A stretch of 64,000 nt of DNA, taken from NCBI GenBank assembly GCA_951406725.2, contig OX597814.1:106826001-106890000 (forward strand). Reading direction: 5' to 3'. Source of the DNA: Octopus vulgaris (taxonomy: Eukaryota). The notes below the pieces were generated by a model, which was given only the letters and a program-made list of their open reading frames with translations, did not search any database and had not been told where the DNA came from. Shown here in pieces: positions 12,205-58,348 of this stretch. Position 1 is the first letter of the stretch. Each line of letters starts with the position of its first letter. A program made the position numbers and the translations under genes.

Positions 12205-12597
<393 letters not shown>

Positions 12598-12659
12598 AAA
12601 TGGGACAAGAATGCAAAACACTCAGAAGACGATACAAAAAACACGGACGGGTCATTCGA

Positions 12660-12735
12660 AGCCTTCAATCTTCAGTCAAGAACCGGATCATCCTCGCAAT
12701 TTCGGCTGATTAATCTTGAGATTGCTCCAATCTGA
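12660..12735 (-). ncRNA. Non-circularly permuted HHR-like motif within repeat 12595-12870
   Basis: GCAAT-C-TCAAGA..AGCC-GAA-ATTGC..TCTTGA-CTGAAGA-ttgaa-GGCT. Confidence 0.6.
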
Positions 12736-13484
12736 CCAACGCCCCAAGGAAAAACTAAGCTAAGAGCATTAGATTTCTTGGAAAAAAGCTTCGAATGTAT
12801 ACGAAACAAGAACGGAAAAACGGACGATGTTACACGAATATAAATACAAAAATAATACGAAAAACGCACACATATATGTATGTGAGCGTTTACGTGTATG
12901 TGTGTATATGTACATATACCTGCACATTGACAATTTTAGTTTATCTAAACAAGATATTTATTCATTAAGAGTGCACAATGACTTGACTGGTAGTCGGTGC
13001 CGCGACTGTACGTCTAGGTTACTTGAATATACAATAAAAATATACCTCAAACATTCCCCATTAAGGAAATAACGGTATATTTGCCATAAATCACCTCGGG
13101 GGACTTCTAAATGTCTCGGTGTCAATACAATTTATTAGTCGCTGTTGAACCAAACTTGTTTAGAGACACGATATATTTTCAACTGTTGATATCACGAATG
13201 CTCGGTTTATGAATCTACCGGGAACGGCCAAAGAAACGAAGTTGTCAATTAATATATCGCCGAGAAATAATACCTGTCTAAGGTCTAATAACTGTGGCCA
13301 TCACCTTTACTTAAAATTCATAATTACCACAGCGCCTCCTTTTGAGTGTCGAGTTCTCAAGCAAGACTTGGAGATATTGTTGCATTAAACAACACACACA
13401 CACACACACACACTTATATATATATATGATGAAAACATAAATCCTAATGGTGAAGCGAGTCCGGAGAGAGCCGAAGCCGAGAGG

Positions 13485-13781: not shown

Positions 13782-14465
13782 CCTAAGTGTACAGCATTAT
13801 ATATCCAACACGGCTGATCTTATCAATCAGTTTCACGCTAGGAATACAACTGATTATTAGGTAACAATCCTGTTGTCGCCTGTTGCGTTCTTGTCCCATT
13901 TTTTTGTATTCTTGCTTATATACATATAGCGGCGTACGTACACTTTAGTCCCTTATATGTAAGTATATATATTTTTTTTCCCCTACTCAACTTGTCTCTT
14001 CCTCTCTCTCTCTCATTCTTCCTTCTCTCTCTCCCCCTCACCATTCTTCATGGTCTCCTCGCACCATTCCCCTTCTTCTCTCCCTTCCTCTTGCTCCTCC
14101 TCCCCCCTTTCCGTCGTCCACCCGCGACGATACTTCCGCCCTGACTGCTAACTGTCTTTCTCGCCTGGCCTTCGAGGCAACTGGACGACTTTTCCTGCTC
14201 TCTCGTCGCTCACAAAAAATTCTGCGTTTGCAATACTTTTTTTCGTTCGGCGTCAACAGCCTTTCTTATCTTGTTTTCCCTGCCCTGTCTTTTACTGTTA
14301 TATATATATTTTTTACTGTTTATATATTTTTTTACTGTTTTTTACTGTTTATATTTTTGTACTGTCGTTACTGTCCTGTTTTTTTACCTTTTTTTTTACC
14401 ATTTTTTTACCCCTCTGCGAAAAGATCTCAGAATTTTAATTGATTTGCTTTTCGCAGGAAGGAAA

Positions 14466-14542
14466 GTTTCTTGTCGAAGATACGTCTCGCTTTTATCCTT
14501 CGAAACGTAGAGTAGATGAAACCTTAGCGACTGAAGAAGGGG
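14466..14542 (+). ncRNA. Non-circularly permuted HHR-like motif with an intact core and a GUC cleavage triplet
   Basis: GTTTC..TACGT-C-TCGCT..CTTC-GAA-ACGTA..GAAAC..AGCGA-CTGAAGA-A-GGGG. Confidence 0.65.
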
Positions 14543-14749: not shown

Positions 14750-14790
<41 letters not shown>

Positions 14791-15295
14791 TTTGTACGAA
14801 TCTTTTATCATTTCATTCTTTCTTTCTTTCAGCCCCTTCACACTTCGTTCTTTCCACTCTTCTTTCTTTCGCTCTCCTCTCTCGCATTTCCTGGCCTTCC
14901 CTTCATTCACACTTTACTCTGTCCCTTTTCTTTTTTCATCGTCCCTCCCTAATTCTTCTATCCCGCTGCGTCTGCCTTTCTCCTCTCCTTCCACATGACC
15001 AGTGTTCGACCAAGCCTGACCTTTCTTTCTTGGTTCGACTACCATCCGTACATCATCTATATTCCTTCCCATGTTTGTCATCTCTTATGTCCCTGCCGTA
15101 AGGCTTAACTTCCACACAAGCCAGCTTAGTTTAATTTGTCCTTAGTTGAAAAACACCTATTGTTAATGTCCTGTGGTTTACATTTGTATTGGTGTATTAT
15201 TTCTCCGTTTTTTTTTTCGTCCTTGTTCTCGTACACATTCGCTGCTTTCTTCCAAGGAATCTAGTGCTCTTAGCTTAGATTTTCCTTGAGGCTAG

Positions 15296-15375
15296 CCAGA
15301 TTGGAGCAGTCTCGAGTATAGCCAGCCGAAACTGAAAAGATAATGTGGAACTCGACTGACGAAAAAAACTCTGAA
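15296..15375 (+). ncRNA. Non-circularly permuted HHR-like motif (stem II decayed) within repeat 15200-15450
   Basis: CAGT-C-TCGAGT..AGCC-GAA-ACTG..ACTCGA-CTGACGA; homologous to 12595-12870. Confidence 0.55.
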
Positions 15376-15461
15376 TGACCCGTCCTTATTGTTTCTTGTC
15401 CCTTTTTTTATCATCTGTCTGTTGCGTTCTTGTCCCATTTTTTAATTCTTTTATATATATA

Positions 15462-18400
15462 TCTCTTATGATAAAAGGCAGATTTTCTCTGCCTGTTCCC
15501 ATGTTTCTTTTTAATACAATTCTGCAATATAGAATTTCTTCAATTGGAATTTACCTATGATTTTTCTAAGTAGATTCGATTGGGTCATGGCATATAATTT
15601 TTTTTTCAATTTGACCCCCAATTAAGCAAAAATTCGAGAAAACTCAATATTTTACGATTTGCCTCTCTCATTTCAAGTGGTTTACTCCTGCTATTACCAC
15701 CACACTTTCTCCTACTTTCTCTTTGCAAGTGTGAAACTATTAAAGTGAAAGTATTATATAACAGGGATGAGCCATTAATAGCGGTCGTCCTTTTTGCTAG
15801 AGGAAGATCCGCTATGGTCTTATATGCTAAACCACTGGTTTTCAATTCATATTAATCAAATTAATGTTCAATTTTTCACCCTTATTATGTGTGTGTGTGT
15901 GTGTGTATTAGCAATTCGTGTAAAATTGCATCAATGACTTGAACTTGAATAAGTGGTTTCACATAAATGGGGATAAATTAAAAAGGTTTGTTGTTATTAT
16001 TATTACTGTTTGACTATTGTAATCACGTTTGTTGGTTCCTCGTCAGGGAAATGTTGTTGTGTTGCATTTGTTAAATAATTGTAAACCGTAACCCTCCCCC
16101 TTTCGGAGAAGGAGCTTTGGTTATTGTTTAAAAATTGAATTGTGTCCCTGTTTGGGGAAATTGACAATACTTTCATCGTCTTTACGGAAGCATTTTTGTT
16201 AAAATACCTTCGATAGAAGAAAGTCCAAAAATGAATTTCGCTGCAGCTGTACACTTCTATACAAGAGGGAGGACAAGATCCAATTGATCGAAATTGCAAG
16301 AGACGGGCCTACAATTCCAGTCTATTATATATTTTGAGTATTGTTATCACTAGCATTATCAAGATATAACTTTGTATTTTGTATTTTATGTGTAGATGTA
16401 TATATATAGATGTATATGTAATATGTACACATATATATACACATATATACATGCATAATATATCTACCCATACACACATACGCACACACACACACATACA
16501 TAGGGGCAGGTGTGGCTGTGTGGTAACAAACTACGTTCCAAACACGTACAGTCCTACTGTGTGGTGACTTGGCATGTGTCTTCTGCTGTAGCTTCAGACC
16601 AACAAAAGCCTTCTCAGTGGATTTTGTACATATATACAGGCATACATACATATATATATATACATGCATACGTACATATTCGGCATAAGCACTCTACCAC
16701 TACAACTAATAACTGTTTGGAACACTTTCAAACCTGCCTTACATTCGAACCGGAATCTCAAAAGCATTGTCCCCTTCAGCGCCAAGCTCAACTGCTCTAT
16801 CCTGACATGGAGGGTATCAGCAATGAAATCTATAACAAAACACTCATTGCTAAACTGGGTGGAAATGAATTGTCGACGTATGGCCTGCCACAAGCATTCA
16901 GGTCAGGGTCAAATAGCCTTCCCACTGCTGTCATTCGTGAAACAACCTACGACACTCAAGCGCTTTCAAAGTACATTGTTGAAAATGAGCCTAAATTACT
17001 TCCGGACCAGCTGCAGGCCTACATAACTATTCTTAATAGTGTACGCCAACGCGAGGGACGAATCTTCTTCCTCGATGCTCCTGGAGGGACAGGAAAAACT
17101 TTTATTACAAAGCTTCTCCTTGCAGAAGTTAGGTAGCATCAGGACATTGCAGTAGCTGTAGCCTCCTCTGGCATTGCAGCTACTTTGTTACCCGGTGGCA
17201 GGACAGCACACTCAACTTTTAAACTCCCTCTCAATTTAGCAGCATCCGAAATGTCTTCATGCAACATTAACAAAAGCTCACATCAGAGACAAGTACTTAA
17301 AATTAGTTATGTAATTGTCTGGGATGAGTGCACTATGGCTCACAAGGGAGCTCTGGAAGCATTAGATAGAGCCCTGAAAGACATCCGAGATTGTCAGGCT
17401 CCAATGGGAGGTGTAACGCTTCTGTTGTCAGGTGATTTCAGGCAAGCACTTCCTGTCATTCCGAAAGGCACTAGAGCTGATGAAGTTCAAGCATGCCTAA
17501 AGTCCTCTACCCTGTGGCATCATGTTACAATCTTTAATCTCACCACTAGCATGAGAGCTCAGCTACACGGCGACAAAATGTCCACAAAGTTTGCACAGGA
17601 CATTTTGACACTTGGTGAAGGCAAGATGCCTCTCGATGCTGCAGGACAAATGGAAGTGTGGTCATTTTCCTCTGTTGTTAATTCTGTAGATGACCTAAAA
17701 ACAAGGTCTTTCCCAACTTCACACAAAACTACCAAAATCACAATTGGCTGTGTGAAAGAGCAATATTAGCTCCAAAAAACGTCGCTGTTAACAAAATTAA
17801 TCAACAGCTATGCATTCTCTTCCCGGCACTATACACACTTACAAGTCTGTTGATACAATTCCAGATATAAATGAAGTTGTGAACTATCCTCCTGAATTTC
17901 TCAATTCACTGGAGCCCTCCTCGACTACCTCCACACATGTTACCACTTAAAGTTGGAACTCCTGTAATGCTACTCCGCAATCTGGAAAAAATGATATTAC
18001 ACGTTATCGAGGCGATCATTCTTTCTGGATGTGGAAAAGGTGATGACGTCTTTATTCCAAGATTTCCTCTTACTCCATCAGGAGCAGAAATTCTATTTAC
18101 ATTCAGAAAACTGAAATTCCCCCTTCGTGTCAGCTTTGCCATGTCCATTAACAAATCTCAGGGTCAAACCCTCTCTGTAGCTGGTCTTCTCTTGGAATAG
18201 CCCTGTTTCTCGCATAGGTACTGTATGTAGGCTACTCAAGAGTAGGAAACAAAAGAAACCTTTTTTTATATGCTCCACAAGGAAAAACAAGGAACATTGT
18301 TTACAACGAGGTGTTATAATCTCAACAGCCAGGAGGTATATACATGATCCCCTTTTTTTAACAAACTTCACGTACTTTCATGTATTTATATTAATATACA

Positions 18401-18824: not shown

Positions 18825-19723
18825 TACACTCACAGATAAATACAGATGGATGATAGGTATATGTACTGGCTTTTATAATGAGAATTGTTATAGAGATATC
18901 TTAATTACTTGAAAGGAAGTCATGGGAAGGCGTCCCGTCTTTTAGTGATCTCACACAACCTTCCTTTCGGTGATATTTAATCCAAATGGAGACAGCGATA
19001 AGACATGTACTTAACTTTGTCAACTAACGTATATCATCATCTTATATGTGCAAATAGCATATATATTATCCGACCCATACTTTGTACAAGATATATATAT
19101 ATATTATTCTATGTATATAAGGAAGATCTACTGGTCGTGTCAACTAATGCATTTCATTTGATGTATGCATTGAAATGTTCATATTTGTTTGTGTGACACG
19201 AAACTTGAAACGAATGGTTGTTTTCACGGCAGGAAAACTAGAAAAATATTGACGTCTGCAAAAGCTGATTTAAAAATATTTACCGAAAAATTACAAAGCC
19301 GCGGGCTTTCTTTCAGTCATTACCAATTCCATTGTGAACATCAGCGAACGATGTTAACAAGCATATTGTATTTATTGACTAGTTGACCGGGCAAACTTGA
19401 CTGCTTTTGTTTTCACTGTTACCAAATCTATGAAGAACAAATGCCTCAAAACTGAGTACAGCTGCTAACTCGGGTATCTTTTGCAGAGAACTGAAAGTTT
19501 TGTAAATTTTCATGAGACAAGGAAACTAGAGATTACAAAGAAGAAATCAGCAAGGTGGGGTAGTTCTAATAAAAAACGGGGACGAGATAACAGTATATAA
19601 GGCACCGTATGTTTATATATAATGGAACAAAAACGCTATAGTGGACAATAAAACATTCGAACAGTCCGACGATACAAAGGCAGACAGGAGAAACAACAAT
19701 TAGAAGGACAAGCAAAAAAAAAC

Positions 19724-19781
19724 GTCATTCGTGACCCTCTTTCCTCAGTCAAGTATATCAGAAGTCCTTACTGTTTCGGGC
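19724..19781 (-). ncRNA. Partial permuted HHR-like motif (cleavage strand lost to a (TA)n tract)
   Basis: GCCC-GAA-ACAGT..TACTTGA-CTGAGGA-aaga-GGGT..GAATGAC; flank 19620-19720 is homologous to 57450-57550. Confidence 0.45.
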
Positions 19782-20099
19782 GTATATATATATATATATA
19801 CATACCACTGTATTTATACTGCATCGTTAAAAACCACTAAATACTCTTGTCTAGGCATGCGTATGTAAGTACTCAATAAATGAAGTATCACGTGTAAAGC
19901 TATAAAATCACCAACGCCTCAGGCTGCATGGCTGCAAATAGACACCATAAAATTTATCCTACTTTTCTTTATAGAAATGATCATCTACACTTTCCATCCT
20001 CGAGGTTTCACATCCAATGAGAAATCTAACATCTGCAGTGAGATCATTGAGTCTTGGAATTATTGCTTTGAAATAAGAGACTTATCTCTTACCATTAAA

Positions 20100-29667: not shown

Positions 29668-29710
29668 TTAATATGCATATATATACATATATATATATAT
29701 GTGTATATGT

Positions 29711-29761
<51 letters not shown>

Positions 29762-29772
<11 letters not shown>

Positions 29773-30119
29773 GAATGTTTGAAAATGCAATTTTAAAAGG
29801 TGTTTATTCACCTGACCGGTTTCACTTTTTTAGAAAAAGATTGTCAAAAGTAAAATGTAAAAGAATGTATATATTTTCAATGAACTTTTTAATATCTTCT
29901 CAAGATTTTTCCTTTTAAACTGATTTAACAATTTTCTTATTATTATCAAAGAATGTATATATGTACTGTAATATTTTGTGACAACCAGTACTTAATACAA
30001 CGAAGTTTTTACAAAGCTTTTACATTTTACTTTTGACAATCTTTTTCTAAAAATGTGAAACCGGTCAAGTGAATAAACACCTTTTAAAATTGCATTTTCA
30101 AACCTTCTTTCATATATAT
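29762..30119. mobile_element. Fold-back element with ~100-bp arms, each holding a U3-A8 variant HHR-like motif
   Basis: Arms 29762-29863 and 30017-30119; motif TTACTT-TTGACAA-..-GAAACCGGTC-A(A/G)GTGA at 29808-29853 (minus) and 30027-30072 (plus). Confidence 0.65.
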
Positions 30120-30153
30120 TTCCACTCGTGCGGTATCTTACAACTTCACTTTG

Positions 30154-30231
<78 letters not shown>

Positions 30232-42730: not shown

Positions 42731-42790
42731 TAAACATACGTTTGTGTGCATGTAAATAAATTTATGTACACACACATATGTAAATAGTCA

Positions 42791-42821
<31 letters not shown>

Positions 42822-42876
42822 ACATATATATAAATAAATCTCTGAGTGAGGTATAAACAGTAGCTGCACGACAACG

Positions 42877-43168
<292 letters not shown>

Positions 43169-53870: not shown

Positions 53871-54704
53871 ACAATCCATTCCACGGGATTCTCTACAGTT
53901 TCTATCTACCCAATGAGGCAATAGAAAAAGACATGTTTACTCTTTTACTTGTTTCAGCCATCAGACTGCGGTCATACTGGGGCACCACCTCAAAGAGGTT
54001 TCAGTCGAAGTAATCGACCCCAGTACTTTTTTAAAGCCAGGTACTTATTCTATTGTGCTCTTTTTGACGAACCACTACTATAGCAGAAAACACTTAACCA
54101 AGGTGCCAGGCAGTGGGACTTAACCCAGAACCGTGTGGCTGGGAAGCAAATTTCTTACCACACATCTACGCCTGCTCTTAGATCCTGCGCAATGTGACCA
54201 AACCTTGCATTCGTGGTTGCAAATATGACACTTTATTTATCGACCCCCGTCCACCTCCGAAAGGATCAAAGGCAAACTGAACCACAGTGCGATTTGAACT
54301 CAGAGCGTTGAGGGTCGAAACGATTATCGCCTAGCAATTTATCCAACGCTCTAACGACTCACGTGCACACATACACGCGCGTGCGCGCAGGATAATGATC
54401 TTCCTTGTCGACAATGACATGTAAGTGACCAGGTCTTCAATTCACATGTGTGCGTGTTTTCTGTGTGTGAGCATACATGCATATATGCGTGTGCGATTAC
54501 GTTTAATTTTGGTTTGAATAATATGCTTAAATTCACAGCACATAAACACAAGCCACCCGTACATTAATTTGCATATAAATACTATACAAGTATTAGATAT
54601 ATATATATATATATATATGTAGGTCCCGGGTTGATTCGGGGTTAACCACAGTAAGTAAGGTACTCAATACATAGCAGAGTAAAATTAATTTATTATATAG
54701 AAGG

Positions 54705-54755
54705 AGCTTCTACAGGACTAGTACTGTTTCATTCAAGAGAAATCTTCAGGAAGCT
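54705..54755 (-). ncRNA. Complete type I HHR (GUA triplet), left arm of fold-back element 54620-55487
   Basis: AGCTTC-CTGAAGA-tTTCtcttGAAt-GAA-ACAG-tactagtc-CTGT-A-GAAGCT. Confidence 0.8.
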
Positions 54756-55120
54756 ATTTAACAAGAATTGTATTAGCATTTATACATTTAGGCAGGTTTA
54801 AAGGAGTGGTGGTGGGGGACTTTTTTGGGGGTAGGCATAGCGCAAAATATCATACTTGGGGGAGTGGTCAAGGAGTCAGTGGTAAGTTAGATGAAAGAAT
54901 AGATAAATAAAAAAATAAAATAATAAAATAAAATAAAATTAAAAAATAAAAAAATAAAAAAATAAAAAATATATATAAAAAATATATATATAAAAAATAT
55001 ATATATAAAAAAAAAAATATATATATATAAAAAAAGGGGGGATAGAGTTATAGGTAAATAAGGAGATTCTCACTTGTACCTATACACACATGTATACGTA
55101 TCTACACACATATATATATA

Positions 55121-55172
<52 letters not shown>

Positions 55173-55418
55173 TATATACACATATACATACATATCTACA
55201 TACACACATACATACACCCGCCCACATATACAAATTTATACACATGCACATGCATATACCTGTCTACACATACACACACGTATATATGCATACACTCACT
55301 CCCATGCATGCACGCATACACACATGTATATATATACACACGACCACACATACATATATACACATATACATATATACACCCACTAAATGTATAAATGCTA
55401 ATACAATTCTTGTTAAAT

Positions 55419-55469
55419 AGCTTCCTGAAGATTTCTCTTGAATGAAACAGTACTAGTCCTGTAGAAGCT
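55419..55469 (+). ncRNA. Complete type I HHR, identical inverted copy
   Basis: Same sequence as 54705-54755; arms about 54688-54791 and 55383-55486. Confidence 0.8.
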
Positions 55470-55480
55470 CCTTCTATATA

Positions 55481-55556
<76 letters not shown>

Positions 55557-56557: not shown

Positions 56558-56849
56558 TGTGTCGTTAACTATGAAGGCACATGGCTGAGTTAACAGTTTG
56601 TTTCTCCGTCGGGAATTTTAAAGTTTGGCACCCCCAGCATGGCACCGTATTCAAATATATTTTTTTCTATAACTTCGGGTCTACTTGAGTCTCCAGGACT
56701 AAACTGGATTGGAGGAAATTGTGCGAAAGCCTGTCAAATCAACTTTGCCTGTGATTTGAAATACTTACCTTCTTGTACACTGTGTCATGCTGATTCTGAC
56801 TAAACGTTATGCTAGGGGAAGGAATTGGCCATGATATGTTCGATAATTT

Positions 56850-57345
56850 GTGATTATAAGCAGCCGAAGACAACCAGCAAATCTCAAAAGATTCTTAATA
56901 AAGGTGAAATTCATATCAGAAGAATATCAGGTAACAAATTTCGCAGACCCTTGTTGTGAGACATGTGAAACAATTGATCAGGGAACAGTCAAAAGATCCA
57001 AAAATGAGAAAGAATTAAAGGGAAATGCAAATATGAATTGCAAAAGAAAAAATCGCATTTGTATAACAATGCAATGAGAACTATATCGAACAAAACTCTA
57101 TCAAAATTAATAGATCGTATTAGAATACATAAACAACAAATTAAAAATTCCTCTCTTAGAAATATTCCATGCGGTGAATATCTAGACATTTGTGGAAATG
57201 AAACATTCAAAATATTTCCTTTTTTACAAAATAAAGGAAGAAAATGATCAATTACGAAAGGTAAAAGGAGAAGATGCTTTATAAAATCTAAATCTGAAAC
57301 TAAATCGGAAATAGTCAACACCGCTATTAAAAACAACTTCCTCTA
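56850..57345 (+). pseudogene. Penelope-like element GIY-YIG endonuclease C-terminus (Cys-rich linker, Neptune-like), decayed
   Basis: DPCCETCETI...NMNCK.KN.I, then KL.DRIRIHKQQIK...IPCGEYLDICG...FKIFPF and a later FI motif; the GIY/YIG residues are degraded by frameshifts. Confidence 0.7.
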
Positions 57346-57361
57346 TACGGATTACTCATGA

Positions 57362-57440
57362 ACCAGATCGAACCATCTCAAGTGTAACTGTCCGAAATGG
57401 TCATGACTTCTGGTACTTGACTGATGAAAGAAAGCTAAGA
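57362..57440 (+). ncRNA. Non-circularly permuted HHR-like motif directly downstream of the Penelope endonuclease
   Basis: ACCAGA..ACCAT-C-TCAAGTG..GTCC-GAA-ATGGT..TCTGG-TACTTGA-CTGATGA. Confidence 0.6.
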
Positions 57441-57982
57441 ATGACCCGTTTTTTTTGCCTGTCCTTCTAATTGTTGTTTCTCTTGTCCGCCTTTGTGTTG
57501 TCTATCTGTCCGAACGTTTTAATGCCCTCTATTGCGTTTTTATTTCATTTTAATATATACATATATATATATATATATATATCGAACAGTGAGAAAGAGT
57601 GCTCAACACTGCATTGCTGGATAAATATTCTTTATTTTGGGGTCAACAAGGTCCCCATTGGTTTCATGTGAAGAGAAATATCTCAACAATTATCAAACTT
57701 GCCACATGAAATGTGCGTATTCATCTCCATCTTGGGGATATGGTGCATACATTAAAATGGATCTCCAACCAATATATTTATATATATGTATAAGATCCAA
57801 CGATCGATGTGTAGGAAGAAAGTTAGCTTCAAGCAATCCGTAGTAAATAAAGAAACAACTTTCAGGAACAATAGAGATTGTTGGAAGGTTGTGGATTTTT
57901 TTCTTATTGAAGTACGATGAGCTGAAAAAAAAGTTTTATATTTCACAGTAGGTGACCAGGGTTGCCAGGTGTGCGAATAAGA

Positions 57983-58348
57983 ATACAAGAGTCAAGGAAC
58001 GGAGAAGTTAAGATCCGGGTTACATGTTTCATGACGAGCAGAACGTCAGAAGTGGTGAATATCCAAGCGAGGCGAATACTGCAGGCTAACTCTTCAGGCC
58101 AAGGATATCTTGTTTAAAGGAAAGGTTACACTGTCGCAAGGAGAAACATGTTAAATTATTCCGATTGAATCTTCCACGTATTAACATGTACTCCCTTGCA
58201 ACAATGTAAACTTTCATTTAATCAAGATATCTTTTACCTGAAGAGCAGCCTGCAGTACACACCTCGCTTGGATAGTTACCACTTCAGAGGTTCCGCTTGC
58301 TATTAAACATATGTAGATCTTACATGCTCCATTCTTTAACTCTTGTAT
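57983..58348. repeat. Old diverged fold-back (~175-bp arms)
   Basis: ATACAAGAG..ATCCAAGCGAGG..TACTGCAGGCT..AGATATCTTG..ACATGTTAA is mirrored in 58180-58348. Confidence 0.8.

Follow-up and report, generated by a model that had tools for sequence, protein, structure and literature searches.

A rewired hammerhead motif and a Neptune-like endonuclease remnant in Octopus vulgaris, probably from two different Penelope-type repeats

The window, a 64,000-nucleotide stretch of the Octopus vulgaris genome, contains a decayed Penelope-like element (PLE) endonuclease followed on the same strand by a hammerhead-like motif. Two different Penelope-type repeats probably meet at this locus: the end of a Neptune-like endonuclease and a copy of the motif repeat that has been shortened. 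They were likely joined once, here. The reading starts from three observations: the homology of the endonuclease, the helices of the motif with their covariation, and the divergent sequence into which other copies of each piece continue. The route of the joining and the function of the motif are proposed from these. The neighbouring endonuclease should not be used to name the parent of the motif.

The end of a decayed Neptune-like PLE ORF occupies 56853..57314 (+). It is 5’-truncated and frameshifted, and carries the thumb-linker motif RRQPANL (56865-56885, +) followed by a Cys linker and a GIY-YIG endonuclease. The four peptides named in the preliminary description are present (CCETC at 56952-56966, NMNC at 57030-57041, RIRIHKQQI at 57116-57142 and FKIFPF at 57206-57223) and are spread over three frames. 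The end of the endonuclease had been placed near 57345; it is actually KLNRK-stop at 57297-57314, with the stop codon at 57312-57314. The endonuclease closes the ORF, as the window reading frame stops after KLNRK at 57314.

An exhaustive phmmer protein search with 57071-57244 as the query gave 43 matches to the endonuclease, among which three long unrelated proteins were dropped. Pfam GIY-YIG is found in 10 of the 19 matches scanned, in 8 of them above its cut-off. The relatives align back to 56853-57266 by tblastn and have no further match elsewhere in the 64-kb window. The tblastn check proposed earlier confirms the identity of a PLE GIY-YIG endonuclease, with P0005 giving an E of 1e-21 over 56853-57229. 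Two word-indexed protein searches with window fragments returned no match, Pfam returned no real match on four window fragments, and no relative of the endonuclease was found in the viral and prokaryote collections.

RVT_1 is followed by GIY-YIG in P0014 and P0049, so the endonuclease is C-terminal to the reverse transcriptase (RT). P0044 and P0049 are full-length cluster members in which the RT, the Cys linker and then the endonuclease follow each other. The CX2-5CxxC linker and the CCHH motif are present in P0044, P0049 and P0014; the window copy has CCETC as its linker and another residue in place of the second His of CCHH. When compared by eye with Figs S1-S2 of PMC8557442, P0044 and P0049 show no insertion-in-fingers domain (IFD). 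P0044 reads DKG, not DKA, and both proteins resemble the Neptune rows of Fig. S1 in the same source. With the linker, CCHH and DKG motifs in its relatives and no IFD, the peptide agrees with the Neptune-like type suggested earlier, a placement made by motifs and not by a tree. Judged from these motifs, the remnant is the 5’-truncated end of a Neptune-like PLE. It shares with the Neptune-type C-terminal-endonuclease PLEs (PMC8557442, PMC4209133) the order of RT, Cys linker and GIY-YIG, as well as CCHH and DKG in its relatives, but in the window copy the 5’ part is truncated, the frame is shifted and the tail is gone after 57354-57359. Minimal type I hammerheads are described in such Neptune-type PLEs (PMC8557442, PMC4209133). 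Since the tail of the window copy is lost after 57354-57359, its own hammerhead, if any, would be absent from the window.

The motif belongs to a high-copy repeat whose 5’-truncated copy A occupies 57361..57552 (+) and consists of a rewired hammerhead and a pyrimidine-rich tail. A (TA)n tract lies at its 3’ end (57553..57582). The rewired hammerhead spans 57362..57427 (+), with C17 at 57377. The descriptor puts the motif on the strand of the endonuclease, with C57377 as the predicted cleavage nucleotide and 57377/57378 as the predicted cut, as had been claimed. On the same strand, an extra helix pairs 57362-57367 with 57409-57414, stem III pairs 57372-57376 with 57397-57401, and stem I pairs 57378-57383 with 57415-57420. 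GAAA is at 57394-57397 and CUGAUGA at 57421-57427. The stem II 3’ strand is at 57390-57393; the family’s stem II 5’ strand is deleted. The start of the motif at 57362 does not hold for the family as a whole, whose own 5’ part, including the stem II strand, is missing from copy A.

Four other copies are found in the window. Copy B (12575..12820, -; C17 at 12720) retains the family’s own upstream sequence. In copy C (15212..15462, +), C17 is at 15311 and 15290-15293 form the stem II 5’ strand; the sequence upstream of this copy is non-coding as far back as a (TA)n tract near 14785. Copy D (19608..19785, -) is cut off by a (TA)n tract immediately ahead of GAAA, so that the cleavage strand is absent and the copy begins 3’ of the predicted cut. 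Copy E (14458..14537, +; C17 at 14486) represents a sequence-distinct family with the same wiring and a 6-bp upstream stem II. The solo copies of the preliminary description therefore exist at 12.7, 15.3 and 19.7 kb, but its list was incomplete and lacked copy E at 14.5 kb, the fifth and sequence-distinct copy. About 500 nt of non-coding sequence upstream of copies C and E gave no RT or endonuclease (EN) match. It is plausible that the solo copies are insertions of a pseudo-LTR alone. A repeat of copy C’s 3’ end lies 1.5 kb upstream (13880-13927 vs 15419-15462, +; 87.5% over 48 columns). These repeats bracket copies E and C and may be a pseudo-LTR remnant or the tail of one composite insertion.

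The descriptor requires stems III and I and the order cleavage strand, GAAA strand, CUGANGA strand. It finds 4 full cores in the window; 200 dinucleotide shuffles average 0.015 per window. All of the invariant core letters are kept: CUGANGA with a free N7, GAAA, U16.1-A15.1 and an H17 that is not G. In a five-row alignment 42 of 44 cells (95.5%) are paired, and slid controls give 25-36%. Eight of 11 pairs change on both sides, in stems I and III of sequence-distinct families; the covariation comes from 5 sequences, both strands being present in 4 of them, and these same rows served to derive the structure. The S-G-C core order and the covarying stems bear out the proposal that the motif is a non-circularly permuted hammerhead, with cleavage itself being predicted.

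Rfam finds no hammerhead at the motif, and its window matches are microsatellite-driven only (among the 150 of 362 listed). Nested folding also gives no signal at the motif (z of 0.17-0.71). These results, and a stem II strand placed elsewhere than in all published hammerheads (in PMC10085705 it is assumed to come straight after CUGAnGA), could point to a conserved structure with another role, or to a relic, instead of a working ribozyme. However, pseudoknots lie outside the models of Rfam and MFE folding, and nested folding is uninformative for them. An extra base is tolerated between A9 and G10.1 in natural hammerheads (PMC3705267, PMC4209133), every invariant core letter is present, and stems I and III covary in sequence-distinct families. 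A structure without ribozyme function is therefore highly improbable.

Contig depth climbs smoothly from 57361 to 57390, across the predicted cut, and no loose ends fall at the cut among the 24 of 350 rows listed. Contigs cover the motif in one run guessed to be RNA; contigs cannot show expression. A helix between GGTCAT (57399-57404) and ATGACC (57442-57447) was dropped as a candidate, as it is not kept in copies C or E. The consensus lines and copy E would allow a further helix between the two flanks, 5’ and 3’, but it is poor in copies B and C.

The stem II strand lies mostly upstream of the cleavage strand and not after CUGANGA. A 4-bp stem II partner 0-2 nt past CUGANGA is present in none of the 4 full copies. 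The upstream option is more stable than the downstream option in copy C (-7.1 vs -2.1 kcal/mol) and in copy E (-7.3 vs -4.0 kcal/mol). Copy B has 4 bp downstream (-5.0 kcal/mol) and 3 bp upstream (-4.6 kcal/mol), and in copy D a downstream partner of 4 bp is available some five bases away. With the two options about equal in B and a downstream option in D, the exact opening point of the chain is provisional. In the consensus of contig loose ends, GGGC or GGAC stands just before 57361-57364; these match both common forms of the stem II 3’ strand (57391 T or C), the phase not being shown. Copy A has a substitute upstream partner at 57349-57352, from the endonuclease tail, of a kind that occurs by chance in 230 of 2133 window segments (about 11%). 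Copy A is probably inactive and would be a poor construct for a cleavage test.

Intact copies would have the strand order IIa - extra helix - IIIb/UH/Ib - IIb/GAAA/IIIa - extra helix - Ia/CUGANGA. Folded as a multiple pseudoknot, they would restore the usual hammerhead core, and the chain would be open between CUGANGA and stem II, where its ends lie. The tolerance for an extra base at the A9-G10.1 step makes an opening there plausible, and cleavage is presumed. The RNA of an intact copy would be cut after C17, which would set the RNA end of the pseudo-LTR.

The two pieces of the locus behave differently in contigs of seven public runs aligned at 80% likeness. The endonuclease family’s own 3’ tail starts at 57315..57354 (+) and is common to other copies, which then diverge. 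The junction of the two families is at 57355..57363 (+), with a depth trough at 57351-57356. Loose ends behind 57354 occur in 10, 13 and 13 contigs (X2, X4, X10) and in 13 and 12 contigs (X3, X12). They share one consensus, unlike the window, and have a median length of about 190-230 letters with no return to the motif. Loose ends before 57361 occur in 75, 79, 85 and 7 contigs in one set and in 76, 49, 63 and 57 in the other (49-85 per DNA run, 7 in the run guessed to be RNA). They share another consensus, which matches what lies upstream of copies B and C in the window. In one X9 contig, the 876 letters that precede the motif contain no match to 57291-57354.

Pieces that cross the junction are found once per run in X2, X3, X4 and X10 (among the 32 of 7436 and 32 of 2795 pieces listed), and none are among the pieces listed for X9, X12 and X15. 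The crossing pieces in X2, X3 and X4 are the locus itself, with 0-2 differences and single-copy depth; the one in X10 is an ortholog that carries a deletion. In one set, the 15 of 101 joints listed include none that spans the junction, and in the other set zero joints are listed. In X2 the summed depth is 3357 on the endonuclease tail and up to 152370 on the motif, with 47.5 on the unique flank; at 57351-57356 it is 1106, and this trough bin alone bounds the bridging depth at that value. The difference between motif and endonuclease is about 45-fold. A rough reading is tens of endonuclease copies and thousands of motif copies, although depth is not copy number. The contigs are short and the listed numbers are lower bounds, which leaves room for a rare second chimera, a few bridging contigs or a spacer of more than about 200 nt.

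The adjacency appears to be specific to the locus and its ortholog. The preliminary description had treated it as a family feature that identifies the parent element, and had named uniqueness to this locus as what would refute that view. Among the pieces listed, only the locus and its ortholog bridge 57354/57361, and uniqueness is what was found. Elsewhere, copies of either piece run on into other sequence, so the adjacency likely does not name the parent. The position was also thought to support the ribozyme independently, a claim that is not supported. As a reading of sequence, the ribozyme stands on covariation and on a parallel in Naiads (below).

A different explanation keeps the Neptune-like lineage as the parent, with the rewired hammerhead far down a long 3’ tail and an internal deletion at this locus making the two adjacent. 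Both pieces are PLE-derived and lie on one strand, the contigs are short, and the loose ends are displayed for 30 letters only. However, the loose ends behind 57354 hold no motif over their median length, and one contig set has no joints across the junction. Neither the 876 letters of the X9 contig nor the approximately 500 nt upstream of copies C and E hold an endonuclease. The depth gap of about 45-fold and the type I-like cores near the stop in relatives also argue against a long tail, and this explanation is very unlikely.

These type I-like cores come from nine metagenome loci that encode relatives of the window endonuclease. The descriptor finds the rewired core in 0 of the 9. A type I-like core lies about 90-110 nt past the stop in 3 of the 8 loci with downstream DNA; it is intact in L001, nearly intact in L002 and degenerate in L004. 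Rfam gives nothing for the four of these nine loci that it was applied to; the type I calls therefore come from the descriptor and from inspection by eye. It had been proposed that a Neptune-like lineage uses the permuted ribozyme where others use a type I hammerhead. The type I part is seen in L001, L002 and L004, but the permuted part is seen in none of the nine loci. In L003 an inverted RT fragment (2204-2344) lies directly 5’ of the endonuclease piece; an inverted 5’ arrangement has been described for PLE insertions.

In the window, CTCATGA at 57355-57361 has 6 of the 7 letters of CUGAUGA and spans the junction. In the loose-end lines for the lost tail of the endonuclease family, GAAA follows about 20 nt further on. 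This is a weak hint that the family’s own tail might hold a type I hammerhead from 57355. The loose-end consensus lines of the family are without CTGANGA at 57355.

For the favoured reading of two joined repeats, the motif repeat would have entered by its 3’ end, the target being a (TA)n tract that ended an older Neptune-like copy. Its truncated 5’ end would then have been joined at about 3 nt of microhomology (AAC); the loose-end consensus lines suggest that AAC was in both parental sequences at the join. The joining would have cost the rest of the Neptune-like tail and the motif’s own stem II strand. The family’s stem II strand is deleted at the join. Two adjacent insertions that later lost a little DNA between them would give the same picture.

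The locus could also be a one-step chimera, in which a Neptune-like RT began, by priming at (TA)n, to copy the motif RNA and after some 190 nt switched to its own mRNA at AAC. In that case the Neptune-like element would have mobilised the motif in trans without being its parent. The common strand, the short microhomology and the single (TA)n tract at the 3’ end are consistent with such an event, as are the 5’ truncation of both pieces and the absence from the window of the rest of the Neptune-like tail, which has 0 matches there with up to 3 mismatches allowed. However, only one event is seen, and nested (TA)n insertions with loss of target DNA look identical. No target-site duplication was found, and PLE template switching was not found in the literature searched. 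A one-step chimera is therefore unlikely. The corresponding wider claim, that the locus is the footprint of a Neptune-like RT template switch and that ribozymes move between Penelope clades, is likewise improbable. A 9-bp inverted repeat, spotted post hoc, flanks the whole composite (56837-56845 and 57580-57588); this length is reached in 6 of 600 random pairs of 40-nt zones.

The motif resembles the type-SGC hammerheads (HRIMA-1 and variants; Eckert et al. 2023, PMC10085705) in the order of its cleavage, GAAA and CUGANGA strands, in having all core letters and in its multiple pseudoknots. In type SGC the stem II strand follows straight after CUGAnGA, whereas it is mostly upstream in the window motif. 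The window motif also differs in its extra helix, which pairs the 5’ flank with the linker ahead of stem I. Type-SGC RNAs were reported from metatranscriptomes, with none from genomes of known organisms (PMC10085705); the window motif is present at very high copy number in the genome of an animal. Cleavage has been shown for type SGC (PMC10085705) and is predicted for the window motif. Plain membership of type SGC was rejected, as 0 of the 4 full copies have a stem II strand directly after CUGANGA.

Naiads are PLEs reported to be without a canonical hammerhead, with Naiad_Ovul and Naiad_Esco flagged ‘HHR_half_core’ (Craig et al. 2021, PMC8557442). Their ORF has an N-terminal EN, CxC and then RT, and they prefer insertion at (TA)n (PMC8557442). 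By eye, the same wiring is found at the 3’ ends of 3 of the 7 Naiad consensus ends in the supplement of PMC8557442, and none was seen in the other 4. Naiad_Obim and Naiad_Ovul, whose ends are near-identical to each other, have a 6-bp upstream stem II, a 5-bp extra helix, a 5-bp stem III, a 6-bp stem I and CUGAUGA. Naiad_Esco has the same order with an imperfect stem II (4 of 5 pairs). The window motif is like these three ends in its strand order, its extra helix and its association with (TA)n. No Naiad ORF was seen beside motif copies in the 64-kb window, and short-motif searches and reading by eye gave no sequence link between the motif family and the published octopus Naiads. The parts of PMC8557442 covered here do not describe this wiring for Naiads, and it is absent from those covered of a retrozyme preprint (bioRxiv 10.64898/2026.07.22.740005). 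It was not found described in the literature searched, on which further supplement parts of PMC8557442 and PMC10085705 may bear. This Neptune-like element is a less likely parent of the motif than a Naiad-type element or a Naiad-derived non-coding passenger. Since Naiad_Obim, Naiad_Ovul and Naiad_Esco are unlike the window motif family in sequence, they do not identify its parent.

A stem II that is detached from CUGANGA is a wiring outside the published block model. The balance tips slightly toward thousands of copies carrying an active hammerhead of this kind, which would be the ribozyme that Naiads reportedly lack. If the motif cuts, CUGANGA need not run straight into stem II, and non-circularly permuted hammerheads extend from metatranscriptome RNAs to animal genomes. 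It would also account for descriptor searches missing ribozymes in Naiads, and the role of the hammerhead in Penelope-type retrotransposition would become testable across clades.

The window has 36% G+C and is rich in microsatellites. A separate repeat family has an ordinary type I core with one extra base after A9, at about 21505 (+), 21025 (-) and 48103 (-); the 21.0-kb and 21.5-kb copies lie in opposite orientations. A stop-interrupted PIF1-like helicase remnant lies at 16504-17766 (+; Pfam E of 1e-50), and presumably comes from a Helitron. Long, imperfect, MITE-like self-inverted repeats with 74-78% identity are found at 29677-30225, 42750-43135 and 57983-58348. An exact 104-bp inverted pair is also present at 54688-54791 and 55383-55486.
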